DNA of 64,000 bases from Perkinsus olseni (Eukaryota). Position 1 is the stretch's first letter. Every line of letters starts with the position of its first letter. Below are positions 1-64,000 of the stretch, one piece after another. The position numbers and the translations under genes were made by a program. The notes beneath the pieces are model-generated. The model did no database searches and was not told where the DNA came from. It saw nothing but the letters and a program-made list of their open reading frames with translations. The stretch spans positions 62,001-126,000 of the forward strand of contig JABANN010000008.1 of assembly GCA_013115125.1 (NCBI GenBank). Reading direction: 5' to 3'.

Positions 1-1
1 A

Positions 2-247: not shown

Positions 248-276
248 TGCTTGTTCTGGTCGACCTATGTTCTCCC

Positions 277-11832: not shown

Positions 11833-12372
11833 GCTATGGGGGGCTGCACGTCGTTGCTAACTTCTACTGATGCTGCTTCTAGTTGAATGAAAATTAGTCT
11901 ACTAGACTGGAGTGGTCTGGTAGACAAAGAGGAGGACAACGAAAACTCCTGCATGAGGAAATAACGTTCAATACCACGGCTGGCGTCTACCGTCTACGAC
12001 CTTTGAAACAACGCGCGTCGAAAAACGGACGTTGACGCGGCCAAGAGTCCCCAGTGAGACGCCCAAGGCCGAGCAATTCTCCGGGGAGTCGGCTGGTACT
12101 ACAATGCGTCAGGCTAAGCTAGTGAATGTGAATTATGTACCGCTTGAACTATTGAACTTGCCTCGCGTTCATTGAATCACCCGCGCATTTCCACAATCAC
12201 TTGCGCACTTGCAGTTTCTCAACGCGCCATCGCGCTCTGCTGCTCTCAAAGTCTCTGTAAGTTCGCAGCGGACCCTACAGAAGAGGCTACGTACCAGTAG
12301 GTGATGCAGAGCTTTGGGCATATCGCCTGCCTGCCACCGCCAGTCATGCAGTTCGCAACTATCACCGACTAA

Positions 12373-13415: not shown

Positions 13416-13679
13416 AATTGATGTTGGTCATTATAACAGTACGTCAATCACAACATCCCAGGAGGGCACTAGGCAACACAAGCCGCGAGTCGTCTTAACA
13501 TCTGGTAAATCAGTCATGTCTAGTGGAGGTTCAATCATTCACAGTTGGAGGAAGCATGCCACAAATAATACCTAAAGCAACCGTCCGAGTATGGCAGGCT
13601 GGCACGGACACGCACATGTCCCAGATAGACTTCTGCAGCTCTTCGTTCTTTCGATAAATCGATACTTTACGGTCGAGCC

Positions 13680-14633: not shown

Positions 14634-15660
14634 TGCAATAGAGTAATTAAAATCGGTGAGATAGAATGGTCTCCTTAAGATGCCAGTTGCTATACAACAT
14701 GTACGACACACCGCTGTTAAACTTTGCCGAACATGTAAGAGTTCAAGTTCACAGTGATAGCGGTGGTCATGTAGTATAGCTTCGCTTACTATGCCGAGTT
14801 CGTATAGTCGTCAAGACGAACCAAGCAGGAAATACGAAGCCGAACAGTAATGCTCTGTACGGGATTACCGCAGTAGGTACTACGACGTAGACATAATCGA
14901 CGCGCGGCATAGCTCCGAGCGTGCACGCTACATTGAGAAAATGCAAGATTCGTAAGATAGGCAAGTGTCGGCGCAGGATCGAAACTGATCGGAAGTTGCT
15001 CGGGGCCCGCGTTCGTCAGGCCTGTGAAGCCGCGTGTAGCATGCTTATTCTACATAATACGACACTATAAACTATAGGGTTCCGCCTCTACACTGCACCG
15101 CTACTGTTGTTGGCCTCTTCTAAAGTCCCCCAGTTGGAAATTCTCAGGTCCACGCGGACACGGCCGGCTGGCAGCGTCAATCCGAATGAGCTGATTTGTA
15201 TGATAAAACTCACTACTGTATGCTCTAATAATCAACCACTGCACTTCGCTCGTCACTCTGCTCTTTCTGCTACCTACATCTTCGTATCTTGGGTTTGTCA
15301 ATCGACTTTTCACGATGGTTCGTGTGGCCTCGGTCACTGCTTACGATGGAATTAGCTATATATCGTTAAACCAGCGGCCGATGCCTGGTGGATTTGAGAA
15401 ACACCTGCCTTGCTCGTCTCTTCACTGGCTTGCACGCGTAGAGGCATTGACGGTTGAGCGAGGTTGTTCGGGCACTACCGTCGTCATCGCACCGGATATC
15501 GGGGTCCTTCTCGGCTGCTGCTCTTCTTCCTTACAGGTTTTGCCTTTCTCGGGATTGTTACCCGTGAAGGCCCATCACCCTGGGTATGGCATAATTCGTC
15601 TTCTGCTCTTAATAAGGCAAGACAATTAATACTGAGAGTGTAATACATCCCACGCCACCG

Positions 15661-15683
15661 CTCCTCATCGTTGTCGCCTTCAG
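15661..15683 (+). promoter_or_regulatory. Candidate splice or spliced-leader trans-splice acceptor upstream of the giant gene
   Basis: Pyrimidine-rich ctcctcatcgttgtcgccttcag ends 12 nt before ATG 15696. A similar tract (gtgtacttctgcag, ending at 4124) precedes UBC6. SL trans-splicing is known in Perkinsus and dinoflagellates; applying it here is inference. Confidence 0.35.
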
Positions 15684-15695
15684 GCTGTTAATAAG

Positions 15696-15825
15696 ATGCA
15701 TTTTCCTATGCACCGCTGGCACTTGATAATATTGTGGCTCACACTTCTGCCACTACAGGTGAGCAGATCGCCGGTTAGTTCCCAGCAAGGCTCACTGCTT
15801 TCCTGCTGCTCAGCTCGTACAGGGA
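15696..15825 (+). other. Predicted N-terminal signal peptide of the giant protein
   Basis: MHFPMHRWHLIILWLTLLPLQ|LVQG-WV: basic n-region, hydrophobic core and a V-x-G cleavage motif, split by intron 15759-15813. Confidence 0.75.
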
Positions 15826-18800
15826 TGGGTTCTTGTTGGACGCCGTGGTGACATAACACTACTAGGCCCGCTCACGGTCGACCCTAGCCCCGCACAGGTA
15901 GGCAAACGCGCTTGAAGCTAGGTAGAAGGCGTCTCTGCACAGGCCTCGAGATTTGCTTTAAATAAGCAAGGCCTGCCACAGTGGGATTTCGTGGCGAAGA
16001 AGGAGCTGACGGGCGTGGAAATGAAGACCGACTTGCACATCATGGCCCACGACATCATCGGTGAGCAATCTGTGTTCTCCGTTTCCCCCTGTAGTGCTAT
16101 CAATAGGCGCGGATCCGGTGTCGGTGCTGATATTGATGCTGGACGATGGAAGAGAAGGAGGCGCTATGATTGCACCCCCAGACGGTTCAGGTAAAAGCAT
16201 TCTCGTGTTGTCGTTCTTGTGTTGATTGACTCATCGTTTACTCAGCTGAGCTGCCGCGGTATTACAAGAAGGCCATATTCAACAGTTCGATGGAGGTGCT
16301 TGATGTGGCAGTTTTCAAGAAGTCGCTCTCGGTAGGACCGGTGATTTACGTCGGAGATGGTACTGAGCACTAACAGGTTGAGGAAGCCGTACACTTCTCG
16401 GCCGCCCTGTCGGTCACTGGAGAGTCGGCCTTTTGGAGGCAAGCTCAGTTCTTTTCGAATCTGTGGATCTCGACCAAGCGACCAGGTGAGAGCGGTATCA
16501 ATCCAGTAATACCTTTGAAGCGTTTGGATGGCTATAGGAAAACCTGATGACCCTGAGGATCCGGACGAGTCTAAACGGCCACAGGTCTCAGTCATGGGCT
16601 TCTCTCGTCTGGGGAACTATGTGTAAGTGTGCCCTCGTTGCTCGCCTCGTCGGTCCCATAGTTGCCCCTTGCTCAGACATATGTACGATCGTGTGGTACT
16701 CGGCTCGACTCTGTCGGTGCGATCCTTCGTTCGGCTTGGAAGCACTATAAGTGTTCAAGAGATCGCCACAGTGGGATCGAGCTTGTCCGTTGAAGTGAGC
16801 TGCTGCAGGGGACGGCCAACCTCTCTGATGGCTGTGCTTTCATCAGGGGTTCATCAACATCGGCAACTCTGAGCCCACCGACCCACAAATTGGGACCCCA
16901 GACTCCGGCTACGGCCTTAGCGTAGGCGCTCATCGTGGAAACACTGGTACGAAACACTCCTTCCATAGGTTTACGGAGCGGCAGTACTTCGCTCGACCGT
17001 CAGCATCTTCGACTACGTGTCCATGGGCAGCTCCCTTTCGGTATACAACTTCGCTAAGCTTGGCAGCGGCCTCTCCCTTTTTAATTCGGCGGTGAGTCGT
17101 CCTCGTCTCTCTCCGATGCGGAATCTTTCCTGCTCAGATGTTCGGGTCGTCGATGTCCGTCTTGGACTATGCAACGTTCGGTAGCTCGGCCTCGATCCGA
17201 ACCTATGCCAGAATTGGCAGTGCGCTCTCCCTGTACGGCACGACACGCCTCGGCAGCCGCCTCTCTGTTCTGGACTGGGTACGGCCACTATTCCTCCCAG
17301 CTGTATCAATTGCCCCTCCTCATCTCAGATCACCCTAGGCAGCTCAGCCTCCATTCGAGCTTCCTTCCGCCTGGGCAGCTTCATGTCTGTTGCTGGTAAG
17401 TTGTGGTACTCTTCTCTACACTGATAAGGTCGTTGTCTGCTGCCAGGTCGAGCCCGCCTAGGGAAATCCCTCACCACGTTGGACTTCATCAACATCGGCA
17501 GCTCACTGTCGTTACAGTCCTTCATGCGGCTCGGCAGTGCGACCTCACTGTAATGACGTCTGCGACTAACGCTCTGCGCCGTCATCAGCTCCTCAGATTC
17601 GGAGCCTCTCGTTTTGGCGCATCCCTGTCCGTCCTCGACTTGGCGACACTGAGCTCATCCCTGAGCCTTCGAGGATTCGCTCGGATTGGCAGCACTTGCA
17701 GCCTCTTCGACCGTGCAGTCCTTGGCTCTAGCTTGAGCGTAAGATCGGTTCTGCCCCCTGACACCCGGCCAAGTGCTCCTTCTCAGGTCCTCGATTTCTC
17801 CACGCTAGGGTCGTCGCTCTCCCTCCAAAAATTCGCACGGAGCGGCTCTTCGATATCGGTATACGGCATGGCTCGCTTCGGCTCATCTCTATCGGGCCTG
17901 GACTTCATCAACCTGGGATCCGCTATGAGTATCCGAGGTTTCACGAGATTCGGTTCGGATCTGTCCTGCTACGGTCTGGCCCGGATCGGTTCGAGCCTCT
18001 CCGCCATAGACTCGATAGCTCTGGGCAGCTCGCTGTCCTTGCGGGCAGCGGCTCGCCTGGGCTCGTCCCTTTCTATGCACAGCTACTTCCGTATGGGTAA
18101 AGGATTCTCGCTGTTGGACACTGCAGCGTTGGGCTCCTCGATCAGTCTGAGAGCTGTCTCAAGGTTCGGAAGTGCTCTGTCGGTGTGCGGTGTTGGACGC
18201 TTCGGCTCGGCGCTGTCTCTCCTGGATGCAGCGACTCTCGGCAGCAGCATGTCACTGCGACAATACGTTAGAGTGGGCAGCTCCCTCTCCTTGGTGTCCC
18301 GTGCTCGTCTTGGCGACGGCCTCTCCGTCCTGGACTACGCACGTGCTGGCAGCTCCTTGTCCCTCCGCTCTCTCGCTAGACTCGGCTCTAGCCTATCTTG
18401 CTACGCTACCACAAGGCTAGGGAGCAGTGCTTCAATCCTAGACCGCATCCATTTGGGATCATCACTGTCGTTAAGGTCCGCGACAAGGGCGGGTTCGAGC
18501 CTCTCCGTATTCGGTCTGGCCCGCCTTGGCAGCTCTGTCTCGGCACTGCACACAGCCACTCTGGGCAGCTCCTTCTCGTTGAGATCCTTCATGAGGATGG
18601 GCTCGGCAGTGTCGGCCTGTGGACTGGCACGATTTGGTTCCTCGTCATCCGTCCTTGATTTCGCCATACTGGGCAGCTCGCTATCTCTACGCCAGATGAG
18701 CCGCCTTGGCAGCGCCCTCTCCCTCCTCGGTATCGGTCGCTTGGCCTCCACGGCCAGTATCCTGGACTACCTTCAACTCGGTAGCAGTCTTTCTGTCCGT

Positions 18801-21800
18801 AACCTAGCCCGCATCGGTAGTGCCCTGTCAACTGCCGGCCTGGCTCGGATAGGAGCTACTATCTCAGCTCTAGACCTGATCAACCTCGGTTCCTCCTTGT
18901 CTGCCCGAGCGTTCGCTCGGCTCGGCTCGTCCCTGTCGACCCACAGTCTCAGCCGATTGGGTGACAGCCTTTCGGCTCTCTCCTTTGCTTTCCTAGGATC
19001 GTCTCTCTCCCTTCGTGGCCAGGCTCGCCTCGGAAGCGCCTTGTCGACTTTTGGCTTGTCCAGACTCGGCTCTTCCCTGTCTGTCCTAGACTACGCCCTT
19101 TGTGGTAGTACGATGTCCTTGCGGTCCTACGCTCGCTTCGGCTCTGCCGTCTCCCTGTTCGGCAGCCTCCGGGCAGGCGCCTCTTCCAGTGTGCTGGACT
19201 TTTCCTCGTTCGGCAGCGCCCTGTCTCTGCGTGGTCTGGCTCGCTTCGGGAGCGCTGTATCATCATTCGGTCTCTGCAGACTAGGTAGTCACCTATCTGT
19301 CGTCAGCGCGGCCCACCTAGGCAGTAGCGTGTCGATGCGGCAATTCTCCCGGCTAGGGAGCGTTCTCAGTGTCTTCAGTGCCTCCAGGCTGGGCCTGACG
19401 CTCTCCACTCTGGACTCCGTAGCCGTCGGCTCAGCCCTCTCTGCGAGGGCCTTCGGTCGTACTGGTAGCTCGGTGTCGGTGTACGGTTGCTCCCGCCTAG
19501 GGTCGAGCCTGTCGGTGTTGGACTTCGGCCTTGGTGGCAGCTCACTCTCCCTTAGAGCATTCGCTCGTCTGGGCAGCTCAGTCTCGCTGCACTACCTTGC
19601 CCGCTTCGGCAACACCCTCAGCTTGCTCGACTTCGCTGCCCTCGGATCCACTCAGTCTTTACGATCCTTTGCTCGCCTCGGCAGCAGCCTTTCCGTTGTT
19701 GGCATGGCCCGCCTGGGCTCGCAAATATCGGTGCTCGACTTCGCCACCTGCGCCTCCTCTCTTTCCTTGAGGACCTTTGCTCGCGCTGGCAGCGGCCTGT
19801 CGGTGTTTTCTGTTGCCAGGATGGGTAGCTCCATCTCAACCCTCGGCTTCATGGCCCTCGGCAGTTCTCTGTCAGTCAGGAACTTCGCTCGCCTTGGCAG
19901 CACTATCAGCGTCTTCAGCCTCTGCCGGATGGGCAGCAGCCTGTCGATAGTAGACTTCACTAACCTTGCCAGTGTGACATCGCTCCGTTCCTTCTCGAGG
20001 TTCGGATCGAGTTGTTCGATTTACGGTATGGCGCGTATAGGCTGCAGTATGTCGGTCCTGGACCTCGTAAACTTCGGCAGTACGATGTCCATCAGATCCA
20101 GCTTGAGGTTCGGCAGCTCCCTCTCTGTGTACGGCAAAGTCCGCCACAGCAGTGCTGTCTCTATGCTAGACATGCTAGCTCTAGGCAGTAGCATGTCCCT
20201 CAGGGCCTTTTTTCGAGCAGGCTCCGCGGTCTCAGTCTTCAGCATGGCACGCTTGGGGAGTATCCTCTCAACATACGACAGCATTACTCTCGGCAGTGCC
20301 CTCTCTTTGCGTGGTCTTATGAAGCTTGGCAGTGCAGTATCGGTGTTCGGCCAGACCAGGTTCGGCTCCCAGCTCTCCAACCTCGGCTTTGCCACGCTCA
20401 GCTCCTCGATGTCGATCCGATCCTTCGCTCGCTTCGGCAGCACCATCTCCCTCCTGGCCACGGCACAGCTGGGCTCGGCCCTCTCTGTTATGACCTTCAC
20501 TGCACTCGGGAGCGCGCTGTCGCTGAGGTCGATGGGTCGTGTAGGCAGTCAGATCTCAACCTACGGCGTGTCGAGGTTTGGCAGCAGCATCTCCGTGCTA
20601 GACTTCGTAGCTGTTGGTAGTGCTCTCTCCCTTCGAGCACACATCCGGGCCGGAAGCACTCTCTCAGTGGCAGCTGCAGCCAGGTTCGCTCACAGCCTCT
20701 CGGTACTGGACTACCTCGCCCTGGGCAGTACGATGAGTATCCGATCCAGCTCTAGGCTGGGCAGTACTCTCTCAGTGTACTCCACCTCAAGGCTGGGGAG
20801 CTCCTTGTCCACCCTGGGTTGTGTCACCCTTGCCTCCGCCCTCTCCTTGCGGTCCTTGGTCCGCATGGGCTCGACTGTGTCCCTCTTCGGAACGACCCGT
20901 CTAGGCTCGGGCTTCAGCGTCCTGGACCTGAGCGCCCTAGGATCCTGTCTGTCAGTCCGGGGGGCTATAAGAGCCGGCAGCACCATTTCGGTCTACGGCA
21001 CTTCTACCCTGGGCTCTGCAGCTTCCGTTCTAGACTTCACCGCTCTGGGCTCTGCTCTGTCTCTAAGGAACTTCGCCCGCTTCGGTAGCCAGATCTCAGT
21101 ATACGGTATGAGTCGGATGGGGGACTCAGTCTCCGTGCTGGACTTCGTCCATCTTGGCAGTGCCTTCTCCCTCAGAGGGCACACCCGAATCGGTTCGGCC
21201 TTCTCGGTGGCCGGTCTGGCTCGACTCGGCTGCTCGATGTCAGTGCTGGACTACGTGACTCTGGGCTCGACGCTCTCTCTCCAACAGCATGCGAGATTCG
21301 GTCGTGCTGCATCAGTCTTCTCGACAGCCAGGCTGGGCCTCACGGCATCGGTGCTCGACTGTGTTCACCTCGGTAGCTCCCTCTCCATGCGCTCCCTGGC
21401 AAGGCTAGGATCGACATTGTCCACATTCGCCTCGGCACGCCTGGGCCAGGGTCTGTCTGTGTGCGACTTCTCCCACCTCGGCAGTGCCCTCTCGGTCCGG
21501 TCTGTGATGCGGCTCGGCTCGGCGTTCTCGGCCTTCCGTGGCGCCCGTATAAGCGGCAGCTCCTCAGTCTTGGACTTCCTTGCCTTGGGGTCGTCCATGT
21601 CCCTCCGTGGGGTGGCAAGGCTAGGCTCTACCCTCTCACTGGTTGGTACAGCCAGGCTGGCCAGCTCGACTTCAATCCTGGACTGGGGAGCCCTTGGCAG
21701 TTCGCTATCCTTGCGAGCCATTGCTCGCCTGGGATCGAGTCTCTCCTCGTTTGGAAGTGCTGATATCGGCTCCAGTGCTTCAATCCTCGGTTACAGCCTG

Positions 21801-24800
21801 ATCGGTAGCTCCCTATCTCTGCGTGGACTGTTGAGAGCCGGCAGTGCATTTTCGGTCTATGGGGGTGCTCGACTCGGTCTCTCTCTGAGTACGGTCGACC
21901 TCGTTTCCCTCGGCAGTGCCCTGTCGCTCCGTGGCTTCATGCGTTCGGGCAGCAGTCTGTCACTGCACGCCTCGGCCAGGTTTGGGTCGCTTATCAGCTC
22001 TTTGGACCACACCTGGCTGGGCAGCTCACTGTCCCTCAGAGCTGTCGGCAGGTTTGGTAGTTCCCTATCAGCCTATGGCTCGGCACGACTCGGAAGCGAC
22101 TTGTCCATGCTAGCCTACGCGACTCTGGGCTCAACCCTCTCCGTGCGCTCCCTCGCTCGGGCGGGTAGTGCTCTCTCAGTCTTCGGAGGCTCCCGTCTTG
22201 GCTCGTCAGCTTCGGTCTTCGACTACGTCCATGTCGGCTCATCATTATCACTACGCTCCTACGCTAGGCTGGGCAGCTCCCTCTCCGTTTACGGCTCCAC
22301 GCATCTATCGGACTACTTCTCAGCCCGCCAGCTATGCGATCTTGGCTCGACACTGTCCGTGCGGGCGACAGGACGCCTTGGCTCGGGACTCTCCGTGTTC
22401 GCCACCTCGAGGCTCGGCAGTTCGCTGTCAACGCTGGACTACGTCGTCCTGGGCAGCTCCCTGTCGGTCAGAAGCTGCGCTAGGCTCGGCAGCGACCTCT
22501 CGGTGTACTCATGGACGAGGCTCGGCGATAAGCTATCAGTCCTGGACTACAGCGGTCTTGGCAGCGCCCTGTCCATCCGCTCCTACTCCAGACTAGGCAG
22601 TACCTTTTCGATCCACAGTTCACTCTGGGCTGGCTCTGTTATCAGTGCCCGTGGCATCCTCAAGCTTGGGAGCACCCTAAGTGCGTTCTCCTACACTAGG
22701 TTTGGCTCCACCATGTCCCTCTTTGATGCCACTACTTTGGGCAGCACCTTGAGCCTTCGTTCTTCAGCTCGTCTGGGGTCTGACATGTCGGTCTACGGCC
22801 TAGCCAGGTTGGGAGGCTCTCTTTCGGTGCTGTACCACAGTCATCTAGGCAGCTCCCTTTCACTGAGGAGCTTCGCTAGGCTGGGCAGCGGTGTGTCGGC
22901 CTACGATCGAGCCCGTCTCGGGTCGTCCGTGTCGATCCTCGACTTCCTGCATCTGGGCAGCTCCTTGTCTCTGCAGGCTCACGCCAGGCTTGGCAGCTCT
23001 CTGTCAGTCTACGACTGCACCAGACTCGGCCGATCTGTGACAGTTCTGGACTTCCTCCAGCTCGGGAGTACTCTTAGCCTACGTGCAACGGCCCGGCTTG
23101 GCAGCACTCTGTCAGCGTACGGGGTAGCAAGGTTCGGAGCCTCTCTATCAGCCTTGGATTACACAGTGATCTCAAGCTCGCTATCCCTGCGTGCTTTCAC
23201 TCGGCTGGGCAGTACACTGTCGACCTTCGCCACGACTCGCTGCGGAAGCTCTCTGTCCACTCTGGGCTCCGTGCACCTGGGCAGCGCCTTGTCCATTAGG
23301 GGCGTCACTCGGGGTGGGTCGGCTCTATCTCTCTTCGGTCTGGGGAGACTAGGCTCCACGCTGTCCACACTGGACTCGGTCGAGCTTGGCAGCACTCTCT
23401 CACTGAGGTCCTTCTCCCGGCTCGGGTCGTATCTGTCGACCTTCGGCGAGACTAGGCTCGGCAGTCGTATGTCTTTGGTCGAGTTCGCCTCTCTCGGGAG
23501 TAGCCTATCACTCCGTTCCACAGCTAGGCTCGGATCAGCGCTGTCGATGGTGTCCCTGTTCCGAGCCGGTAGTAGTGGATCCATTCTCGACTTCGTGATG
23601 CTAAGTTCGACAATGTCCCTGAGGTCATTTGTGAGGTTCGGCAGTGCTGTCAGCGTGTACGGCTTGGCCCGCTTCGGCAGCGTTCTCTCGGCCCTCGACT
23701 TCGTTGAGCTTGGGTCCACTCTCTCTATAAGGTCCTTATCAAGGCTGGGCAGCCACGTCTCAGTGTACGGACTGTCAAGGCTCGGCGATGCCCTGTCGGT
23801 CATGGACTACGCTGCTACAGGGAGCTCCCTCAGCCTACGGTCCCTCGTCCGTATGGGCTCCTCCTTGTCGGTGTACACTCATGCTCGAGTTGGCGGGTCT
23901 ATGTCGGTGCTAGACTACCTCATCCTCGGCTCTTCCCTCTCCCTTCGTAACTCCCTGCGAGTTGGCAGCTCCCTGTCGCTGCTAGGCAGGGCAAGGATCG
24001 GTTCCTCGGTGTCCATAGTGGACTTCTCCCACCTTGGATCATCGCTCTCCTTGCGTAGTGTGACTAGGCTTGGCAGCAGCCTCTCGGTATACGACCAAGC
24101 GAGGATAGCGGGCTCCCTGTCGGTCCTAGACTACCTCATCCTCGGCAGCTGCCTGTCCTTACGTGGTGTCGCCCGACTGGGCAGCTCAGTGTCCATCACC
24201 GGAGAGCTCAGAGCCGTAGCACCGATATCGGTCACTGACTTCTTCCAGATTGGCTCTGGTCTTTCGATCCGCTCGTACGGTCGTCTCGGCAGCAGCCTGT
24301 CTGTCTTCGGCGTGGCTCGTTTCGGCTCCTCCCTCTCCTTGGTGGACTTCACGCACCTCGGCTCATCGATCTCCATCCGAAGCTTCTCCCGCTTCGGGAG
24401 CTGCCTGTCTGCCTTTGGCCTTGCCAGGATCGGAGGCTCAATCTCCGTCCTTGACTTCGCGAAGCTGTCCTCGAGTATGTCACTGCGGTCCCTTGCTCGG
24501 CTCGGCTCGACCCTCTCGGTCTTCGACGGGGCTCGTTTCGGCAGCACGATGAGCGTCATGCACTTCGCCTCCTTGGGCAGCGCCCTTTCCATCCGAAAGC
24601 TCCTCCGCGTTGGGAGCTCAATGTCGCTGCTCGAGGGAGCTCGGTTGAGCTCCAGCGTATCCATCCTGGACTTCGCTACTCTGGGCAGTAGTCTCTCGCT
24701 GAGAGCCTTCACAAGGTTCGGCAGCAGCCTTTCTACTTTCGGTCGTGCCAGGGTTGGAGAGAGTCTCTCGGCGTGTGGGCAAGCCTCTCTCAGCAGCAGT

Positions 24801-27800
24801 ATGTCACTGAGATCGTTTGCGCGGTTGGGGTCTAGTCTTTCGGCCTTCGGATCCTGTCGTTTCGGAGGCAGCGTGTCGACGCTGGACTTCGTCCATCTGG
24901 GCAGCTCTCTGAGCCTGCGAGGGTTCTCTCGGCTTGGCAGCGCTCTATCCACTGTGGGGAGGACCAGACTGGCCTCCAGTACCAGCATACTCGACTTCCT
25001 TCACCTCGGCAGCTCGATGTCCGTCAGATCGCTGGCGCGACTAGGCAGCTCTCTTTCCATGTTCGGCCTGGCCAGGCTTGGTAGTTCCGTGTCGGTCCTC
25101 GCCTTTGCCAACGTCGGCAGCTCCTGCTCGCTGCGGAGTTACGTCCGCCTCGGGTCGAGGCTGTCAGTCTTCAGCCTGATGCGCTTCGGCAGCAGCATGT
25201 CTCTGCTCGACAGCGCATCGTTTGGGTCGACCCTATCCCTCCGGGCCGTCGCTCGTGCGGGCTCTACTGCCTCGGTCATCGGCCTTGCCTGGCTCGGCAG
25301 CTCGATGTCCGTTCTTGACTACACCAACGTCGGCTCCTCCCTTTCGCTGAGGACCTTTGCCCGAGTCGGCAGTGCTCTAACAGTTTTCTCGGTAGCAAGG
25401 CTTGGGAGTAGCTCATCCACGCTGGATTGGGTAAGCCTTGGTAGCTCTCAGTCTCTCCGCAGCTTCTTCCGGATGGGGTCCACCATATCGCTCTTCGGTG
25501 CGGCTCGGTTCGGCAGCTCCCTGACCATGCTCAACTACGCTACTCTCGGCTCATCCCTCAGCTTGCGCTCCTACGTCCGCTTCGGGTCTGCCTTGTCAGT
25601 GGCCGATGGTATCAGGACGGGTGCGTACCTGTCAACAGTGTCCGAGACCCACCTTGGCAGCTCCCTCTCCACACGAGCCTTCGTTCGCTTGGGCAGCTCT
25701 TTGTCGGCGTTAGGGTGCCTGCGGCTGGGATCTTCCTTATCGCTGCTCGACTTCGCCTGCCTGTCCAGCGCCATGTCCCTTCGGAACTTCGCTCGGGTTG
25801 GTTCGACGGTATCCATCCTGTCGGTATCAAGACTTGGCAGCTCCTTATCGATATTCGACTTCGCCACATTGGGCAGTGCTCTATCGCTGCGTTCCTTCGG
25901 TCGCTTCGGCAGTAGTGTCAGCTCGTTCGGCCTGGCTCGGCTTGGACTGTCCTTGAGCGCCTTGGACTACGCATCCTTCGGTAGCTGTGTCTCATTGAGG
26001 TCAGTGGCTCGTCTGGGTAGCTCATGCTCGGCCTTCGCCGCCAACAGGCTCGGCTCGGCGGTGTCTGTAGTGGACTTCACCCATCTGGGCAGCTCCCTGT
26101 CCCTACGTGAGTTCGCCAGGCTGGGCAGCGCCGTATCGGTACTCAGCGCAGCCAGGCTCGGGGATGTTGTATCGGTCCTGAGCTTCACCGAGGTGGCCAG
26201 CGGTCTGTCCTTAAGAGGCTTTGCCAGGCTCGGCTCTACGTGCTCAGTGATGGCCAAGGCTTACTTCGGCTCTACTCTGACTGTCCTTAATGCCGCTCAT
26301 CTGAGCAGCTCTCTGAGTCTAGCAAGGTTTGCCCGCTTCGGCAGTGGATTCTCCATTCTGGGCGTGGCCAGGCTGGGTTCGTCCTTCTCGGTCTTCGACG
26401 GCGGCTACATGGGCAGCTCCCTGTCGCTGCGTAGCTACGCCAGGCTGGGTTCCTGCCAGAGCATCTGCGGCGTCACCCGGGTAAGCTCAGCCTGCTCTGT
26501 TCTCGACTACTTCCACCTCGGAAGCTCACTATCTCTGCGGGACTCCACCCGAATGGGCAGTTCGGTCTCATTATTCGGCCTTGCGCGACTAGGAAGCAGC
26601 TTATCGACGGTGGACTTCACGACCCTATCGAGCTCCCTCTCCATCAGAGCCTTTGCGAGGGTGGGCAGCAGCCTATCTACTGTGTCGACTGTCCGCTTCG
26701 GGGAGCAGCTGTCGGCCGTGGATGTCGCTAACCTGGGCTCTTCTCTCTCCTTGCGCAACTTCCTCCGTATTGGAGGCCGTATCTCTGCCTTCGATATGGC
26801 CAGGCTCGGCAGTACCATGTCGATCCTCGATGCCGTGTACCTCGGCAGCTCCCTCTCTGTCCGGGACTTCGCTCGAGTAGGGTCCTCGATCAGTACGGTT
26901 GGTATGGCCCGGATCGGCTCCCAGACCTCCATAATGCACGAGACAGCTCTCGCCTCGTCGCTTTCCCTACGGACCTTCGCCAGGATGGGCAGCACCTGCT
27001 CGATGTTCGGCTCAGCTCGCCTTGGGTCAGCCTTGAGTGTTCTATCTTTCGCCTCCTTCGGCAGTACCCTGTCCCTGAGAGGCCAGGCACGGCTCGGCAG
27101 TCAGTGTTCCCTCTTCGGTACCTCAAGGTTCGGCTATGACGTCTCCATAATGGAGTCGGCCCTCTTGGGCTCATCTCTGTCTCTGCGTGCGGCAGCTCGG
27201 CTAGGCTCGAGTATCTCCGTCCAGGGTGGGTCGCGGCATGGTGGTTGCATGAGCGCTATGGCTAATGTAGAGCTCGGGAGCTCTCTGTCGTTGAGAGCAT
27301 TCACGAGGCTTGGAAGCGGCCTGTCGGTGTTCGAGACCTCGAGACTGGGTGGCTCCCTCTCTGCCCTCAACTATGTGGCTGTGTCAAGCTCTCTTTCTTT
27401 GCGGGGCTGCGTCAGGCTCGGCAGCACACTGAGTATTTTCGACGGGTCTCGGCTCGGTGGGTCACTATCATCTTTAGCCCATACCACCATAGGCAGCTCC
27501 CTGTCGCTGCGCTCCTTCACAAGGATGGGCTTGACCCTCTCCCTCATGGGCATGGCCCGCTTCGGTGACTCTATCAGCCTCGTGGACTTCGCCACATTCA
27601 GCTCGTCGCTGTCACTGCGCCAGTTGGCCCGCCTTGGCAGCTCCCTCTCCGTGTCGAGTCGAGCTAAGATATGCTCGGACATGAGCATACTGGATTTCCT
27701 TCACCTAGGGTCCTCTCTATCAGTCCGTACGATGGTCCGGCTGTCCAGCTCCCTCAGTCTCGTCGGAGCCGCCCGGTTGGCCAACACGATGTCGGTGCTG

Positions 27801-54800: not shown

Positions 54801-57800
54801 TCATTCAGCCGCCTTGGCAGCTCCGTGTCGACGCTAAGCAGCGTACGCGTCGGCGAGGCCGTATCAGTGCTGGACGCCTGTGCACTTGGCAGTTCCCTCT
54901 CCCTACGATCAGTCGCACGGCTCGGCAGCGCAATCTCGGTTACGAGCCTGACTAGGGTTGGCTCTGTCTACAAGCTCTCTGTGATAACCGAGGGTCTCTT
55001 CGGCTCGAGCCTGTCGCTGAGGTCCTTCGCTAGGCTTGGCAGCAAGGCTTCTATACTCGATTCAGCGGAGCTCGGCAGCACCCTCTCGCTGCGCTCCTTC
55101 TGTTATATGGGTTCATCGACGTCCCTGCTCAGTCACGGTACTTTTGGATCGTCCCTATCACTGCGGTCGTTCGCCCGGCTCAGCTCATCGTTTACAGTTC
55201 TTGACTCGACTGCTATCGGCAGCAGCCTCTCACTGAGAGCTTTCATGCGGCTCGCAAGCGGTTTGTCAGTGCTGACGGATTCTCGCGTGGGTGCTGCCCT
55301 CTCAGTCCTCGATGAGGTCCATCTTGGAAGCAGCCTGTCACTGCGCAGCTACGCCAGGTTTGGCAGCTGCTACTCAGTGTTCGACTTCGTCGGTCTTGCC
55401 AGCTCGCTCTCTCTGAGGTCTGCTGCGAGGTTCGGCAGTGTTATGTCTGCTTGCTCTACAGCAAGCCTGGGCAGCCAGCTATCCGTGTTCGACAGCGTCC
55501 TCTTCGGTTCGTCGCTCTCGCTCAGATCGTTCGCACGTCTCGGCAGTGACTTAACACTAGTCGACTTGGCCGTGCTGGGCAGCAGCCTCTCTGTTAGGTC
55601 GATGGTCCGGCTAGGCAGCGGCGTCTCCGTCCTCGGCCTCGCCAGGATCGGCTCGGTGTACAAAATATCAACCATCGGCTTCACCCATCTGGGCAGTTCC
55701 CTCTCGGTTCGTCAGTTCACTCGCCTGGGCGCTGATCTCTCCCTGCTCGGCTTGCTGAGGACCGGCTCTAGCCTCTCAGTCGTTTCGATGAGTAGCTTGG
55801 GCTCGAGTCTTTCCTTGAGGTCTTTCGCAAGGCTGTCTGGTAAGCTGAGTGTCTTGGATAATCTTGCTCTCGGCTCCAGCCTGTCCTGCAGATCGCTCGC
55901 TCGGTTTGGCAGTACTGTATCGGCCTTTGGCGTCTCGAACCTCGGATCTTCCCTGTCGGCTATCGGCCAGGCTCACTTTGGCTCGACTCTCTCTCTGCGG
56001 TCGTTCATGAGGCTTGGAAGCTGCGCGACTGTTCTGGAGCATGCGCTTCTTGGTAGCTCGCTGTCCCTCAGAGGCGTGGCTAGATTCGGCAGTGGTCTCT
56101 CTGTGCACGGACTCGCGCGTGTTGGCTCGGTTTACAAGATCTCCGTGATCGCCGATGCCTCCTTCGGGTCATCACTCTCCATTCGATCGGCCGCTAGACT
56201 GTCATCGACTTTGTCGGTTCTGGACTGTGGGTCCTTCGGCAGTGCCATGTCTATCCGATCTTGTCTTCGAGTCGGGAGCGGCATATCGGCAGCTGGCCTA
56301 TGCCGCCTTGGCGCTGCTCTCACAGCGATCGGGTCCGCTCACCTGGGCAGCTCTTTGTCACTGCGTAACTTCGCCCGCTTCTCTGGTGCGGCCTCTGTAT
56401 TGGGCATGAGCAGCCTTGGCAGCAGTCTGTCGCTGAGGAGCCATGCTCGACTGGGGTCCAAGGTCTCTATCCTGGAATTCGTGAATATCGGTAGCTCGCT
56501 CTCCGTGAGGAGCTTGGCGAGGCTCGGCAGCAGCGTATCTGTGACGTCGTCAATCCGGCTAGCCAGCGCCGTATCGGTGCTCGAGGAGGCCACTCTGGGG
56601 TCCTCCGTCTCACTGAGGTCGTTCGCTCGCTTCGGCTCTAAGATGACCCTGCTGGATTTCAGTACTCTCGGCAGCACTCTCTCGCTAAGAGGGGCTGCTC
56701 GGTTGGGCAGTGGTATATCCATCCTTGGACTGACTCGACTGGGCTCGGCTTACAAGCTCTCTGTTATAGCCTGCACGACGCTCAGCAGTGCCCTTTCTAT
56801 TCGATCAGTCGCTCGCTGTGGTAGCGGCATCAGTGTGGTCGCCTCTGCACGGTTCAGTGGAGCGTTGAGTAGCCTTGACTTCGCCAACTTGGCTAGCACA
56901 GCATCTCTTCGTTCCTTCGCTCGCCTGGGCAGCACGCTCACGGCACTGGATTACGTGAGCTTGGGTAGCTCCCTCTCACTACGGGCCGCCTTCAGGCTTG
57001 GAAGCTCAGCATCCGCTAGCGGAGCCCTGCAGGTTGGTAGCTCTCTCAGCACCATTGGCGTGGTCTCTTTCGGGTCGTCGCTGTCCCTGAGGTCCTTCGC
57101 TCGCCTCGGAAGCCAGCAGAGTCTCCTCGACTACGCAGCCTTAGGTAGCACATTGTCCCTTCGAGGAGCGGCCCGGCTGGGCAGTGGCTGCTCTGTCTTC
57201 GGCATTGTCCGAGTAGGGTCAGTCTACAAGCTCTCGGTCATCGCTGCCACCAGTATGGCCTCCTCGCTATCTCTGCGATCATTCGCCAGGTGTGGCTCAA
57301 GCGCGTCCATATTAGACTACGTAACAGTAGGCAGCTCCCTTTCATTGCGTGGGCTGGCTCGTTTCGGTAGCAGCCTCTCTGCCGTTAGTCGCACCGACAT
57401 CGGTGGAGGGATCTCAGTAATCGACTGCGCTGCACTGGGCAGCTCACTATCTCTGCGGTCGTTGGCTCGTGCAGGGTCCAAGTGCTCAGTCCTGGACTAC
57501 ACTATGTTCGGCTCTACGATCTCACTACGCTCCTTCGCCAGAATGGGCTCGAAGGCGTCGATATGCGACTATGTTGCCCTTGGCAGCTCACTGTCGGTGC
57601 GGTCTCTTCTCCGCATAGGGAGTGCTATATCCGCAACAGCTGGCTGCCAGCTCGGCTGCCAGCTTTCTGTGATCGCAGCTGCGACCTTCGGATCCTCGTT
57701 GTCACTGCGGTCGTTCGCTCGGCTGGCGAGTAAGATGACACTTCTCGATGCAGCCAGTCTCGGTTCTGCACTTTCCCTTCGAGCCTTCGCTCGTCTGGGT

Positions 57801-60800
57801 AGCGGAATCTCCGCCATTGGGCTCGCCAGGGTCGGCTCGGTCTACAAGCTTTCAGTGATAGCCGGTGCCTCCTTCGGAAGCTCCTTAACACTACGGGCCT
57901 TCGGCAGGCTCGGCAGTACGATTTCAGTCAGTGGCTCGGCTTGGATGGGCAGTGCTGTGAGCACGCTTGGCCACGCTGATTATGGTTCCAGCTTGTCAGC
58001 AGTTGGACAGGCCTGCCTCGGTTCATCACTTTCACTGCGCTCCTTCGGCCGCCTTGGTGGGAGAGTGAGCAGCTTCGACGCAGTGATGCTGAGCAGCACT
58101 CTCTCCATCAGGGGAATGGCCAGACTCGGATCGAGCGTCTCCGTGACGAACCTGGCCAGAGCCGGCTCGGTCTACAAGCTATCAGTCATCGCTGCTTCCT
58201 CTCTGGCAAGCGGATTGTCTCTCCGTTCATTCGCCAGACTCGGCAGTACGGTGTCCATCTATGGCCGCACACAGCTCCATGACTCCCTGTCAACGCTCGA
58301 CGCTGTTGGCCTGGGCTCGTCTCTATCTGTGCGGTCCTTCGCTCGCCTGAGCAGTAAGATGAGTACCCTCGATTACAGCTCTCTGGGCAGCTCGATTTCG
58401 ATCCGAGCTTACTCGAGGATCGGGTCTACCTGTTCGACTCTGGGAGCCCTCAACGTCGGCAGCAGCTGCTCGGTCGTAGGCTCCGTAAGCTTCGGCAGCT
58501 CTCTTTCCCTTCGAGCGCTCGGTCGTCTGGGCAGCAAACTTTCCGTGTTCAGCGAGGTTGCCCTAGGCAGCTCCCTCTCACTCCGCAGCATCGGTCGATT
58601 CGGCAGCGGCTTGTCCGTGACCGGTTTGGCTCGCATTGGTTCGGTCTACAGCTTGTCCGTTATCGCCTCGACTGGACTTGCCTCCTCTCTGTCACTGCGT
58701 TCGTTCGCTCGTATCTCGGGTGACATTAGCGTCCTAGATGCCGTGGAGCTCGGGAGCTCTCTCTCTGTGCGGTCCTTCGCTCGGTTCGGTAGCAGTCTGT
58801 CTGTCGCCTCCGAGTTCAAGGTCGCTGACAGCATGAGCACGCTAGGCCTGGCCAACTTCGGCGGTCGCCTCTCCGTCCTCGACGCCGTCCACTGTGGCTC
58901 TTCCTTGTCGCTCCGATCATTCGGTCGTCTTGGCAACAAGATCAGCCTCTTCGATGAAGTGGACATCGGCAGCTCCCTGAGCCTCCGCAGCTTCGCTAGG
59001 CTCAGCAGCTGTGTCTCGGTCGCCGAGTCCCTCAGGGTGGGCAGCCAGGCAAGTGCTCTGTCCTTCGCTAGAGTAGGCGCGTCCGTGTCTGCATTGAGCT
59101 TTGCCAACTTCGGTTCATCATTGTCGCTCCGGTCGTTTGCAAGATGCGGCAGCAAGCTCTCTGCTCTGGACTACACGACGTTAGGGTCGAGTCTCTCTGT
59201 GAGAGCGGCCGTGCGGTTCGGCAGCAGCCTCTCAGTTGCCGGCCTGCAGCGCTTGGGGTCTGTGTACAAGATCTCATTGTTGGACTACATCATGGTCGCC
59301 AGCTCGCTGTCGCTGCGAGGCTTCGTCCGCCTCGGCAGCTCTCTGTCTGTCCTAGGAGCGACCACTGCGAGCAGTACAATCTCCGTCATCGGGCAATCCG
59401 AGTTTGGATCGTCACTCTCGTTGCGTAGCTTTGCTAGGTTCGGCTCGAAGCTCTCAGTACTGGATTATGTTCAGCTCGGTAGCTCCCTGTCTGTGCGCAC
59501 ATTCATGCGGGGTGGCTCGGCGATATCGACGCTCGGATCTGCCAGCCTCGGTTCCGCCCTGTCCGTCGTCGACCTTGTCGGCTTCGGTTCATCGCTTTCC
59601 TTGCGATCATTCGCCAGACTGGGGTCATCAACCTCAGTTCTAGACTCCGGTCACCTTGGCAGCTCACTGTCACTGCGAAGCCTAGCCCGACTTGGTAGCG
59701 GCTTGTCCGTCACCGGGCTAGTCCGTTGCGGGTCTTGCTACAAACTATCTGTTATCGCGAGCTCTTCGCTGGCCTCCTCGTTATCATTGCGATCGTTCGC
59801 TCGTTGTGGCAGCAAGGTTTCGGTTCTATCCGAGGCGTCTCTTGCCAGTTCACTATCTCTTCGAGGCTTGGCTAGACTGGGCAGTTCGTTCTCGGCTATT
59901 GGGTCCTCAAGCCTCGGCTCGCGTGTGTCAGTGCTAGGTGAAGCTAGCTTTGGCAGTTCGCTGTCGTTGAGGAGCTTCGCACGGCTAGGCAGCAGATTGA
60001 GCGTGACTGACTACGTCAACTTCGCCAGCACCTTGTCGCTCCGCTCAAGCCAGAGGATCGCTGGGCGGCTGTCTGTACTGGACACTGCAAACTTGGGAAG
60101 CTCTCTGTCGCTGAGAGACTTTGCCCGTCTGGGGAGCTCCGTGACCGTCCTCGGCCCGGTCGCCGCTTCGTCGTCCTTGTCCATCCTCGGCAGGACATTC
60201 GGTCAAGCTGTAACGGCCCTGGACTCGGCTCATCTTGGATCGTCTTTATCGGTCCGCTCCTTTGCCAGGCTCGGTTCCAAGCTCAGCGTTTTTGATGAGG
60301 TCACGCTCAGCAGCACGCTGTCGCTGCGTTCTGTAGCCCGGCTGGGGAGCGGTGCCTCTCTCCTTGGAGTGCTCAGGCTTGGATCATGCTACAGCCTCTC
60401 TGTTATTGACAGCGTTGCCCTAGCGTCGTCCTTATCACTGCGGTCGTACGCGAGGCTAGGCAGCAGCATATCAGTAGTCTCGCAGGTCGTCCTGTCCGAC
60501 TCTCTATCTGCGCTGTCTTATACGAGGTTAGGCTCTTCCCAGTCTGTGCTGGATTGCGTCCAGCTCGGCTCCTCACTATCTCTTCGCAGCTTCGCTCGGC
60601 TGCGCTCGAAGATGTCCGTCTTCGACTACACCAACCTGGGCAGCTCATTGTCCTTGCGAGGGGTATCGAAGCTAGGCAGCTCAGCTTCTGTCTTCGGCCT
60701 TGGGCGCTTGGGCGAGTCCCTCTCAGCCTTTGACTCCGTGTCGTTTGGCTCTGGCCTGTCCCTCCGAGCATTCACGCGGCTCGGATCGGTAGTGTCAACC

Positions 60801-63800
60801 TTTGCATCGGCGACATACGGATCAGCAGTCAGTACCCTGGGTTGCTCTTTTCTGGGCTCGTCTCTATCACTACGATCCTTCGCGAGACTAGGCAGCAAGC
60901 TATCTGCGCTCGACTCCATAGCTCTAGCGAGCTCATTGTCTCTCCGGGCTGTTGCACGCCTTGGATCATCGTTGTCGGCTTACGGAACTACCAGCCTCGG
61001 CTCAGCTGTATCGGTCGTCGGCTGCACGGCTCTCGGCTCCTCCCTGTCCCTCCGCAGCTTCGCCCGTTTCGGTAGCAAGGTAACAGCATTCGACTGCACC
61101 AACTTGGCCAGTTCCTTGTCCCTACGAAGCACGGCTCGCCTCGGCAGCAGTATTTCGGTCCTCAGCACCGCAAGTCTCGGCGCTGCTGTCTCCACAGTGG
61201 GGGCAGGCCACTTCGGAAGCTCTCTGTCTTTGCGCTCATTCGCCAGGCTCGGTTCCGAGACTTCCATGCTGGACTTTGTCAACTGCGGCAGTAGCTTGTC
61301 CATGCGGGCCTTCTCGAGGCTGGGCAGCAAGATCTCGGTCACCGACTTCGCCGCCTTCGGCTCCTCGCTGTCGTTGAGGTCCTTCGGTCGGTTCGGGAGC
61401 AAGCAGTCGATGCTGGACTTCGTGCTGATCGCCAGCTCCCTCTCCCTGCGCAGCGTGACTAGACTGGGCTCCGGTCTGTCTGTAGCTGGGCTCGCCAGGA
61501 TCGGTTCAGTGTACAAGCTCTCTGTAGTAGCTTCCTCGACCATCAGCAGCTCGCTTTCTCTGAGGTCTATGGCACGGCTAGGAAGCGGAATCTCAGTGAC
61601 AGGTGTTGCTCGCTTGTCCTCTACGGCATCGGTATTGGGCCAAGTCCGATTTGGCGACGCGGTCTCGACTCTGGGCTCGATGACTCTGGGGTCCACCCTT
61701 TCCCTGCGATCCTTCGCAAGGCTCGGCGGTGTGACATCTGTCTTCGATACTGCTTCCTGCGGAAGCTCCCTCTCTCTGCGCTCCTTGGGCAGGCTGGGCA
61801 GCTCCTGTTCTGTGACTGGGCAGAGCCGCATGGGTGATGCTGTTTCGGCCCTAGGCTGTACCGGCCTCGGATCCTCTCTGTCTCTGCGTGCCATGGCCCG
61901 CCTCGGATCCGGAGTGTCGGTCACTGGCCTTGCCCGCCTCGGCTCCGTCTACAAGGTTTCGGTCATATCTTCGACTATTTTAGGAAGCTCCCTGTCCATC
62001 CGATCCTTCTCGAAACTCGCTGGTACGGTGTCCTTCCTGGATTATACTGTCATCGGCTCGTCGATGTCCCTCCGTGCCATGGCGAGGTTCGGCAGCAGCG
62101 TGTCGGTTGTGGGCGTGGCTAAGATTGAAGGAGCTCTCTCTGTTATGGACCGAGTACGCTTCGGCTCTGTCCTGTCGGTGTTGGACGCCACACAGTTCGG
62201 TTCGTCACTGTCCATTCGCTCCTTCGCCCGACTCGGCTCCAAAACCTCTGTCATGGACTATGTGCAGCTCGGCTCTGCGCTCTCACTGAGGTCAGCACTT
62301 CGTTTGGGTAGCGGCTTCTCGACATTGGGTGCCGTTCGCCTCGCCTCCGCGTTGAGCGTGGCTGACAGCGGCCACTTCGGCAGTTCACTATCCCTCCGCA
62401 GCTTCGCTCGGGCAGGGTCATGTGTGTCAGTCCTGGAGCGCGTTGCCTTCAGTAGCTCCCTGTCACTGCGTAGCTTCGCTCGCATGGGCAGCCGAGCCAC
62501 GGTAGTTGATTTCGCTCATATGGGTTCGACTCTGTCGATGCGCTCCTTCTCGAGGCTCGGCAGTGGTATGAGCATCTACTCCACCACCCGCCTCGGTGAG
62601 ATGGTATCGGTCGTGCAAGAGATTCACCTCGGCTCATCGCTCTCCTTGCGGTCATTCGCCAGGATAGGCTCCTACGCAAGCGTCACGGACTATGTGCAGC
62701 TGAGCTCATCTCTGAGCGTACGGTCCATAGCAAGAATAGGGTCAGCGATGAGCGTAACGGGGGTCCTTCGATTCGGCTCTATCGTCGCTCTCTCTGTCGT
62801 TGGCTACACCCACCTGGGGTCCTCTCTGTCTCTTCACAGCTTCGCTCGGCTGGGTAGTGGTATATCGGTTGCCGCTCCAGCGCACTTCGGCAGCGCGGTG
62901 TCTTCCCAGGCGTTCACTAGGGTCGGCGACGTCCTATCTGTTCTCGGCTCGACCGCTCTGGGCTCATCTCTCTCGCTACGGTCGTTCTCACGCCTAGGCA
63001 GCAGGGTGTCTCTGGTGGATCAAGCAGCACTTGGAAGCTCCCTCAGCCTGCGCTCCTTCGCCAGGCTGGGCAGCACTGTTTCAGTAACGGACTCGGTGAG
63101 AATCAGCTCTGGCCTCTCGGTAGTGTCTGTCGCCAAATATGGCGATGCTCTCACGCTTCTCGGCAGAGCTCAGCTAGGGAGCAGTTTATCTCTGAGAAGC
63201 TTCGCTCGTCTCTGCGGGAAAGTTTCCGTCCTTGATGCTACTGCTCTCGGAAGTGCGCTATCTCTACGGGACTTCGCTCGACTCGGCAGCAGCATATCGC
63301 TGCTAGGCGGTGCCGTCGTTGGTAGCACGTGCTCGGTCCAGGAGCTAACTCGGGTGGGAGCTTCGATCTCGGCTCTCAGCTTCGCCCATCTGAGCTCGTC
63401 CCTGTCGGTTCGCTCCTTCGCTCGCTTCGGCAGCAAGGCCTCGATCCTCGACTTCTTACAGGTTGGCAGCTCCCTTTCCGTCAGAAGCTCCATCCGCTGT
63501 GGTAGCGCAGTGTCTCTCCTGGGCCTGGCTCGGCTTGGCTCGGTTTATAAGCTCAGCGTGATCGACTCGACGTCCTTGGGCTCGTCACTGTCCCTGAGAG
63601 CGGTGACCCGTTTGGGATCCTCGGCGTCCCTCCTGAGCAGCGCTTCTCTCGACAGCTCCTGTTCTGTACTCGACAGCCTCACCTTCGGTAGCGCGCTCTC
63701 CCTGCGAAGCTTCGGCCGACTAGCAAGCAAGGCTAGTGTTCTCGACTTTGCCCAGCTCGGCAGCAGCCTGTCCCTGCGCTGCTCGGCTAGGCTGGGATCC

Positions 63801-64000
63801 GACCTCTCCGTCGTGGGTGTCGCTAAGATCGGTTCGGCTCTATCTGCTATTGGTAGTGCTGAGCTCGGCTCTTCACTATCACTGAGGTCGTTCGCTCGAC
63901 TGGGCTCGAAGCTGACCGCCCTCGACTACGTCAACTTCGGTTCATCTCTGAGCCTCCGCTGCAGTGCCCGGCTGGGATCCTACATGTCCGTCCTCGGCCG
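15696..64000 (+). CDS. Giant secreted 12-residue-repeat protein (at least ~15,870 aa, 3'-partial); predicted beta-solenoid/fibre
   Basis: Exons 15696-15758, 15814-15897, 15943-16060, 16107-16190, 16246-16331, 16377-16485, 16538-16622, 16677-16794, 16847-16921, 16969-17091, 17138-17278, 17329-17395, 17447-17549, 17597-17738 and 17787->64000. All introns are GT-AG and phase-compatible (466 codons before the last exon). The last exon reads in one frame (codon starts divisible by 3), checked at 17787, 30000, 45000, 55020 and 63900. The ORF track lists no terminated ORF in that frame after 17399, consistent with no stop codon. Confidence 0.92.
15759..17786 (+). other. Cluster of 14 short spliceosomal introns (45-55 nt)
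   Basis: Lengths 55, 45, 46, 55, 45, 52, 54, 52, 47, 46, 50, 51, 47 and 48 nt, all GT(A/G)...YAG. Removing them gives a continuous frame and restores the 12-residue register. Confidence 0.85.
17787..64000 (+). repeat. Coding tandem repeat: ~36-nt (12-codon) degenerate unit, ~1,280 copies, with a 108-nt higher-order period
   Basis: Translation such as LGSSLSLRSFAR/LGSGVSAYDRAR/LGSSVSILDFLH continues to the window end. Units are conserved as peptide, not as DNA. Confidence 0.95.

Follow-up and report, generated by a model that had tools for sequence, protein, structure and literature searches.

A giant dodecapeptide-repeat gene of Perkinsus olseni is a probable member of the TLP-12-type fibre protein family

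Introduction

Electron cryomicroscopy (cryo-EM) of the glycofibril TLP-12 revealed three identical chains in a triple beta-helix, O-glycosylated at Ser2 and Ser5 of the repeat (CryoSeek, Li et al., bioRxiv 10.1101/2025.09.30.679562). Here, we describe a gene of comparable design in a 64,000-nucleotide stretch of Perkinsus olseni DNA (assembly GCA_013115125.1, contig JABANN010000008.1, positions 62,001 to 126,000 of the forward strand; hereafter the window, in whose numbering all positions are given). The gene begins at an ATG at 15696, is still open at the end of the window, and is built almost entirely of a 12-residue unit that resembles the TLP-12 repeat. Motif and architecture place it in the TLP-12-type family as a new member that appears to be unannotated.

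According to the preprint, Gly is invariant at position 1 of the TLP-12 dodecapeptide, residues 4-6 and 10-12 form the strands, and the glycans on positions 2 and 5 comprise ~7 and 11 (+3) sugars. The helical rise is 9.6 Å and the twist -11.3 degrees. The fibrils came free from pond water, their producer is not known, and the sequence was only tentatively assigned from density. The authors tie TLP-12 to alveolate proteins of ~20,000 residues that end in an intramolecular-chaperone (S74) domain, such as A0A8J1ZHD7 of Amoebophrya sp. A120, which has 19,853 aa, 1,263 GSxxSx7 repeats and a C-terminal ICA domain. Approximately 150 candidates are reported from six alveolate species or strains, none functionally characterised, and the references for the candidate species are papers on a chromerid, Amoebophrya, Polarella and Perkinsus (bioRxiv 10.1101/2025.09.30.679562). 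Our literature searches found TLP-12 mentioned in no further paper of the library searched, and nothing relevant on a giant repeat protein of Perkinsus.

The triple beta-helices of phage tail spikes and tail fibres offer a second point of comparison. They are reportedly folded by a C-terminal intramolecular chaperone of the endosialidase type, and the fibre proposed below would be similar in that a C-terminal S74 domain would trimerise the chains and nucleate the triple beta-helix. Phage stalks, however, have lengths of tens to hundreds of residues and do not consist of Ser-rich arrays of 12-residue units, and we know of no report of a glycan shell around them. PDB sequence and profile searches gave no significant match between phage triple beta-helix fibres and the repeat described here.

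Results

Gene structure and splicing

In a stop-to-stop listing with open ends allowed, one forward-strand frame runs from 17400 to 63998 without a stop (15,533 codons) and leaves the window open at its 3' end. Over the same interval, the other two forward frames contain 617 and 371 stops and the three reverse frames 244-783. Chance cannot account for so long an open frame. From ~17-18 kb on, G+C content settles at 59-61% and the AT skew is strong. The giant gene is absent from the list of open reading frames (ORFs) because the default listing skips frames that run off the window; shadow ORFs of 320-359 aa are present on the reverse strand. A first-pass annotation, made from the sequence, had claimed both the hidden frame and its omission in favour of shadow ORFs, and our listing recovered the same frame. 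The locus shows that routine ORF and gene calling can overlook a protein of 1.6 MDa.

The 5' end was rebuilt independently from the raw sequence and its three-frame translations, by hand, and the result was then checked by script. The model has 15 exons and 14 GT..AG introns of 45-64 nt (Table 1), identical to the phase-compatible introns by which the first-pass annotation had reached the ATG. The spliced product is 47,601 nt, or 15,867 codons without a stop, with a mass of 1.61 MDa and an isoelectric point (pI) of 11.5; the size agrees with the earlier estimate of at least ~15,870 aa and ~1.6 MDa. Exon 15 starts only at 17787, and the open frame before it (17400-17786) runs partly through introns 13 and 14. 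The 12-residue register, from exon 8 on, continues across the splice junctions, broken only by a short non-repeat insert in exon 9, so the introns in this part of the gene are supported internally. Within exon 15 the register changes only by -1 or +2 residues, with no intron-sized interruption.

Contigs from public sequencing runs were compared with this model. In contigs of X11, a run only guessed to be RNA, position 17549 is followed immediately by 17597 and intron 13 is missing; the loose ends on both sides match the letters of the adjoining exon. Position 153 of a 486-nt contig from the same run corresponds to 17787, and the preceding letters are fully accounted for by exon 13 (10 nt) and exon 14 (142 nt); by this arithmetic the contig lacks introns 13 and 14. 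Among the joints listed, at least two of the 14 introns (13 and 14) are therefore spliced out in contigs of this run. Contigs of runs X8 and X11 do not cover 15001-15667, upstream of the ATG, a gap that in itself proves nothing.

The peptide encoded by exon 1 is basic at its start and hydrophobic from residue 9 to 20 (Kyte-Doolittle mean ~2.1 for this core). This profile fits a candidate signal peptide, as claimed in the first-pass annotation, or a signal anchor. A non-repeat head occupies residues 22-214, and canonical units begin in exon 8. Six head exons, scanned singly against Pfam, gave no match. At its 5' end the gene model is complete and comprises the start codon, the signal-like N-terminus, the head domain and the 14 introns.

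Repeat architecture

Residue autocorrelation along the protein is 0.34 at lag 12, 0.37 at lag 24 and 0.40 at lag 36, compared with ~0.07-0.15 at other lags. The spacings between 893 motif anchors are multiples of the same length, 12 residues in 583 of 892 cases, 24 in 198 and 36 in 47 (of the same 892), and the ORF contains 895 matches to GS..S. The 12-residue unit is thus real. The first canonical unit starts at residue 215 and the repeat makes up 98.7% of the chain; the dominance of the repeat stands as first described, and the figure of about 97% given then is revised. Approximately 1,304 twelve-residue units lie in the window part of the protein. Numbered from its Gly, the unit over 360 copies reads G1 (89%), S2 (85%), x, L4, S5 (98%), L/V6, x, x, phi9, A10, R11, phi12.

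Three regimes follow one another along the array (Table 1). The first is in perfect register, and its units are of three types, a (LGSSLSLRxFAR), b (LGSxLSVFGxAR) and c (LGSxLSVLDFxx), which recur in a-b-c order in one constant phase. Each of the six 11-residue units of the second regime has one residue fewer between Gly1 and Ser5. The 14-residue units, with the consensus V-G-S-V-Y-K-L-S-V-I-A-x-T-x, are confined to the distal part of the repeat. Across these 42 units, both Ser are conserved in every copy (42/42), Gly in 40, Tyr in 38, Ile in 36 and Lys in 24. In the consensus context, an LGSGxSVxGLAR unit stands before the 14-residue unit and LGSSLSLRSFAR after it. Consecutive 14-residue units are 3-43 units apart, and the most frequent intervals are 13 units (8 of 41) and 8 units (5 of 41). 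The spliced protein is strongly basic, with 8% Arg and ~3% Asp+Glu.

The strict 36-residue a-b-c super-repeat, the six 11-residue units and the 42 conserved 14-residue units are new here. Together, the super-repeat and the variant units amount to architectural rules, for which the cryo-EM map and further members of the family offer a test.

Table 1. Coordinates of the giant gene and of its repeat regimes in the window
Feature	Position	Strand	Description
Exon 1	15696..15758	+	ATG + 21 codons, hydrophobic core; from sequence reading, gene model and hydropathy
Exons 2-14 and 14 GT-AG introns	15759..17786	+	Model by hand and script
Introns 1-5	15759-15822, 15898-15942, 16061-16106, 16191-16245, 16332-16376	+	Gene model
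Introns 6-10	16486-16537, 16623-16676, 16795-16846, 16922-16968, 17092-17137	+	Gene model
Introns 11-14	17279-17328, 17396-17446, 17550-17596, 17739-17786	+	Gene model
Exon 15	17787..63998	+	Uninterrupted; at least 46,212 nt or 15,404 codons, consisting wholly of repeat, open at window end
Regime A	17805..30764	+	ORF residues 136-4455; 360 units in strict 12-residue register, 36-residue a-b-c super-repeat
Regime B	30732..42450	+	To ~residue 8,530; canonical units and six 11-residue units
Regime C	43026..63578	+	Canonical units punctuated by 42 conserved 14-residue units

Selection on the protein and integrity of the assembly

The repeat is coding sequence rather than a satellite. Tandem Repeats Finder reported no tandem array in the DNA, and self-blastn of the whole ORF returned 35 pairs only, all of them within 168 nt and 82% identity. 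Mean pairwise nucleotide identity among the 360 units is 0.44, 0.58 and 0.33 at codon positions 1, 2 and 3. All six Ser codons are used at the conserved Ser5 (TCG 105, TCC 97, TCT 53, TCA 52, AGC 26, AGT 21), and both AGR and CGN codons at the conserved Arg11. The codon-position pattern, the use of six Ser codons and the low self-identity of the DNA argue that the repeats are old and have been kept by selection on the protein. Codon usage of the giant gene broadly resembles that of the adjacent pyruvate:NADP oxidoreductase (PNO) gene.

Because the DNA is sufficiently unique, the repeat should not cause assembly errors. A 92,988-nt DNA contig of run X1 spans window positions 15001-35000 without a break, differs from them at one site (T>C at 19975) and, by coordinates, runs ~12.9 kb beyond the window end. 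This contig is not independent support, since X1 may be the source data of the assembly.

Two side observations concern the same runs. The T>C difference at 19975, a Val-to-Ala change in the repeat, is shared by one X11 contig and the DNA contig of X1 and is probably an allele or strain variant. A second X1 record (record 2, 46,365 nt) carries near-identical pieces of the repeat, 50-56 nt long and on the opposite strand (e.g. window 22844-22901), and is probably a paralogous repeat locus of the same genome.

Comparison with TLP-12

The giant gene repeats the GSxxSx7 dodecapeptide known from TLP-12 and from the alveolate candidates of the preprint. Gly1, Ser2 and Ser5 are conserved in both, in the giant gene over more than 1,000 copies (~1,304 units), and the TLP-12 fibre and the one predicted for the giant gene are both very long. 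The predicted alternation of inward and outward residues at positions 4-6 and 10-12 also fits the two strands, and the gene's unit fits that of TLP-12 position by position. The size of the product, at least 15,867 aa and still open, fits the Amoebophrya candidates of ~20,000 residues. The host is likewise an alveolate, as the PNO neighbour's best named matches and a repeat relative labelled Dinoflagellata in EukProt indicate. Like A0A8J1ZHD7, the product is an alveolate protein of giant size built almost wholly of the GSxxSx7 motif, and the best named match of the PNO neighbour comes from the very Amoebophrya strain that has A0A8J1ZHD7. The two were compared by description only, and the C-terminus of the giant gene lies beyond the window.

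The first-pass annotation recognised no characterised family for the protein, a view that these likenesses do not support: the unit is the TLP-12 motif (bioRxiv 10.1101/2025.09.30.679562), so the giant gene appears to be a new member of a recently recognised kind rather than of an unknown family. There are also differences. The trimer, the glycans and the fibril of TLP-12 were seen by cryo-EM, whereas the giant gene is known here from sequence alone. The 36-residue super-repeat, the 11- and 14-residue units and the N-terminal head of the giant gene are unmentioned in the passages of the preprint that we drew on.

Relatives in sequence collections

A HMMER scan with a 1,000-aa piece of the repeat against 1.84 billion representatives found 1,372 proteins at E<=1e-3, 409 at E<=1e-10 and 46 at E<=1e-30. 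No close match to the giant gene product was found among these representatives; the best match has 37% identity and none exceeds 68%. The best relatives, P0002 (1,612 aa, E 9e-101) and P0003 (2,175 aa, E 2e-91), share the LGSSLS-type repeat, which in both is followed by a PF13884 Peptidase_S74 domain. They differ from the giant gene in being ten times shorter and in their irregular repeats with variable loops, and P0003 has a long acidic tail after its S74 domain. The first-pass annotation had suggested looking for an S74-type chaperone at the C-terminus; the suggestion fits these relatives, and the gene's own C-terminus is beyond the window. The ten closest short relatives (45-68% identity) comprise two EukProt transcriptome entries, one of them labelled Dinoflagellata, with JGI/IMG or Logan contigs making up the rest. 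A word-based search for homologues of 1,751-5,000 aa gave 10 matches. A single-protein query found no relatives in metagenome contigs or in IMG/VR, and the exact sequence of the window end had no match in metagenome contigs. Two further relatives, P0004 (1,780 aa) and P0007, are Pro-rich, degenerate versions of the repeat; the contig that encodes P0004 measures 46,367 nt, nearly the size of record 2 of run X1.

The more distant relatives P0005, P0008 and P0015 are large and AT-rich, and are called virus-like here by their composition, contig size and an Atlas match only. They have 12- or 24-residue LS[VI]-type repeats, and P0008 ends in Peptidase_S74. Unlike the giant gene, they match Pfam Bactofilin and do not have the conserved G1-S2-S5 pattern, and identity to the giant gene is only 25-30%. 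Alveolates and giant viruses may have the combination of a 12-residue repeat and an S74 domain in common.

Repeat pieces of 1,400 and 1,000 aa matched no Pfam family at E<=0.1, neither Hexapep nor Bactofilin. Two known folds were considered as candidates and rejected. For the hexapeptide left-handed beta-helix of LpxA and LpxD, there was no Hexapep match, the PDB sequence search gave non-significant LpxA matches only (E 0.028-0.8; profile search E >=0.19), and residue autocorrelation has no peak at lag 18. For Bactofilin (PF04519), the matches are confined to the distant virus-like relatives.

Discussion

A proposed fibre

Our best explanation, to which we give a probability of roughly 70%, is a functional nuclear gene, belonging to a myzozoan alveolate and encoding a TLP-12-type fibre protein. 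Direct results are the open frame, the removal of two introns by splicing, the architecture of the repeat and the selection on the protein; trimer formation, glycosylation and a biological role as a fibre would follow by analogy with TLP-12. The chain would consist of a hydrophobic N-terminal signal, a head of ~190 residues and ~1,300 dodecapeptides of the form phi-G-S-x-L-S-phi-x-x-phi-x-R. After entry into the endoplasmic reticulum, a C-terminal S74 domain beyond the window would trimerise the chains, assist folding, set their register and nucleate a triple beta-helix. Three parallel chains would then wind into a triple beta-helix of triangular cross-section, as in the cryo-EM structure of TLP-12, with each dodecapeptide spanning two sides of the triangle. 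Leu4, Val/Leu6, Ala10 and Leu12 would point inward and Ser5 and Arg11 outward, and a shell of sugar would arise from large O-glycans attached to Ser2 and Ser5. At a rise of 9.6 Å, the ~1,304 units in the window would give a rod of ~1.25 µm, which might reach the cell surface or be released from the cell, as a hair or glycocalyx fibril. The roles put forward in the first-pass annotation, among them a mastigoneme, an extrusome filament, a wall fibre and a molecular ruler, are all still candidates.

The super-repeat can be placed in this geometry. On one face of the prism, the predicted strand order is A-b1, B-b2, C-b1, A-b2, B-b1, C-b2, six strands that equal three unit rises. Three unit rises correspond to 36 residues per chain, and the a-b-c super-repeat would thus match the stacking period of this face. 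In an in-register trimer, each 14-residue unit would form a ring of three Tyr-Lys bulges.

Several points weigh against a TLP-12-type fibre protein. The window ends inside the repeat, and the gene's own S74 domain is outside our view; among the 17 relatives scanned, only three have PF13884, although many of the others are probably fragments. The link to A0A8J1ZHD7 and TLP-12 rests on motif and architecture, because the comparison involved no direct alignment, and the word-based search for homologues of 5,500-17,500 aa, limits that leave proteins of ~20,000 aa outside, found none. The core has a pI of 11.5, a point that the TLP-12 preprint, in the passages used here, does not discuss; if the protein is glycosylated like TLP-12, the glycans on so basic a polypeptide might be acidic. 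A monomer modelled with AlphaFold2 is all-beta and shows period 12, yet confidence is low (predicted local distance difference test 61.3, predicted TM-score 0.51), and a Foldseek search of this low-confidence model against the PDB gave 0 matches at E <= 0.001. No run is recorded as RNA, and those with spliced contigs are only guessed to be so. Glycosylation, secretion and localisation of the giant protein are predictions. A three-copy complex prediction (residues 1-240 of alignment A2) scored 0.00 and counts neither way.

Alternative readings

The repeat could instead form a single-chain beta-solenoid, a left-handed beta-helix or bactofilin-like structure serving as a wall or adhesion fibre without a special glycan shell. 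The period-12, all-beta monomer model would suit such a fold, as would the weak PDB matches to LpxA-type left-handed beta-helices, the automatic annotation of some relatives as LpxA or LpxD, and the Bactofilin matches of the more distant virus-like relatives. We consider it unlikely, since the LpxA matches are non-significant, the repeat pieces themselves match neither Hexapep nor Bactofilin in Pfam (E <= 0.1), and the autocorrelation at lag 18 is 0.108, with no 18-residue period. In addition, the cryo-EM structure of a fibril built on this G1-S2-S5 dodecapeptide has three chains (bioRxiv 10.1101/2025.09.30.679562), and the best relatives, P0002 and P0003, carry the trimerising S74 domain. The destination of the protein might also differ from that proposed above. 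A filament stored inside an extrusive organelle, similar to a trichocyst or extrusome, would be compatible with the secretory-type N-terminus, which also suits organelles of regulated secretion; micrometre length would suit a projectile, and the family is present in dinoflagellate transcriptomes. However, no feature of the window points to organelle matrix proteins, and TLP-12 was recovered as free fibrils in pond water (bioRxiv 10.1101/2025.09.30.679562), which makes a stored filament quite improbable compared with a surface or shed glycofibril.

Two further readings question whether the locus is a host gene, or a gene at all. The 12-residue LSV-type repeats of the virus-like proteins P0005, P0008 and P0015, the S74 domain at the end of P0008, and viral 'hypothetical protein' clusters returned by an Atlas feature search at 0.95-0.96, a lead only, raise the possibility of a fibre gene recently inserted by a giant virus or phage. 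A recent insertion is very unlikely for a gene with 14 host-type spliceosomal GT-AG introns, at least two of them spliced out in contigs, with a codon usage resembling that of its PNO neighbour and with no close relative found in IMG/VR; the repeat module may still have an ancient viral or phage origin. Very long repeat arrays are also a classic source of assembly errors, and run X1 and the window may stem from identical data, so that a mis-assembled repeat, or a non-coding satellite open by accident, has to be considered. Such an artefact is barely credible, as 15,533 open codons are not attainable by chance, the codon-position pattern and the six Ser codons indicate selection on the protein, the DNA is effectively unique by Tandem Repeats Finder and self-blastn, and a separately built 92,988-nt contig carries window positions 15001-35000 with one difference.

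Within the TLP-12-type fibre that we favour, the three regimes lead us to speculate that the structure is programmed along its length. A proximal shaft of ~0.4 µm with a-b-c periodicity would be followed by a distal ~0.65 µm split by the 42 Tyr-Lys units, whose bulge rings, most often 8 or 13 units apart (~7.7 and ~12.5 nm at a rise of 9.6 Å), might act as hinge, cross-link or docking nodes in the shaft of flagellar or surface hairs of this alveolate lineage. We regard this as doubtful; if true, it would give TLP-12-type fibrils a cellular identity. With several public sequencing runs to draw on, some with spliced contigs, the production, glycosylation, localisation and loss of function of the protein are directly testable.

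Neighbouring genes

Ten flank ORFs of 104-197 aa (window 1-6000 and 11500-15600) had no Pfam match and, given introns of ~50 nt, are probably exon fragments of unrecognised genes. The PNO gene is an intact single ORF on the reverse strand (6167-11386, 1,739 aa) that encodes a PFOR-flavodoxin-FAD/NAD fusion, assigned by its Pfam domains POR_N, PFOR_II, POR, EKR, 2x4Fe-4S, flavodoxin, FAD_binding_1 and NAD_binding_1. The best matches overall have 71-73% identity, and the best named ones are from Amoebophrya sp. A120 (63%) and Prorocentrum cordatum (56%); these named matches, together with the dinoflagellate-labelled relative of the repeat, identify the host as a myzozoan alveolate. The POR_N match starts at profile position 22 and PNO relatives are ~1,790 aa long, so the true N-terminus of the PNO protein may sit in an upstream exon.

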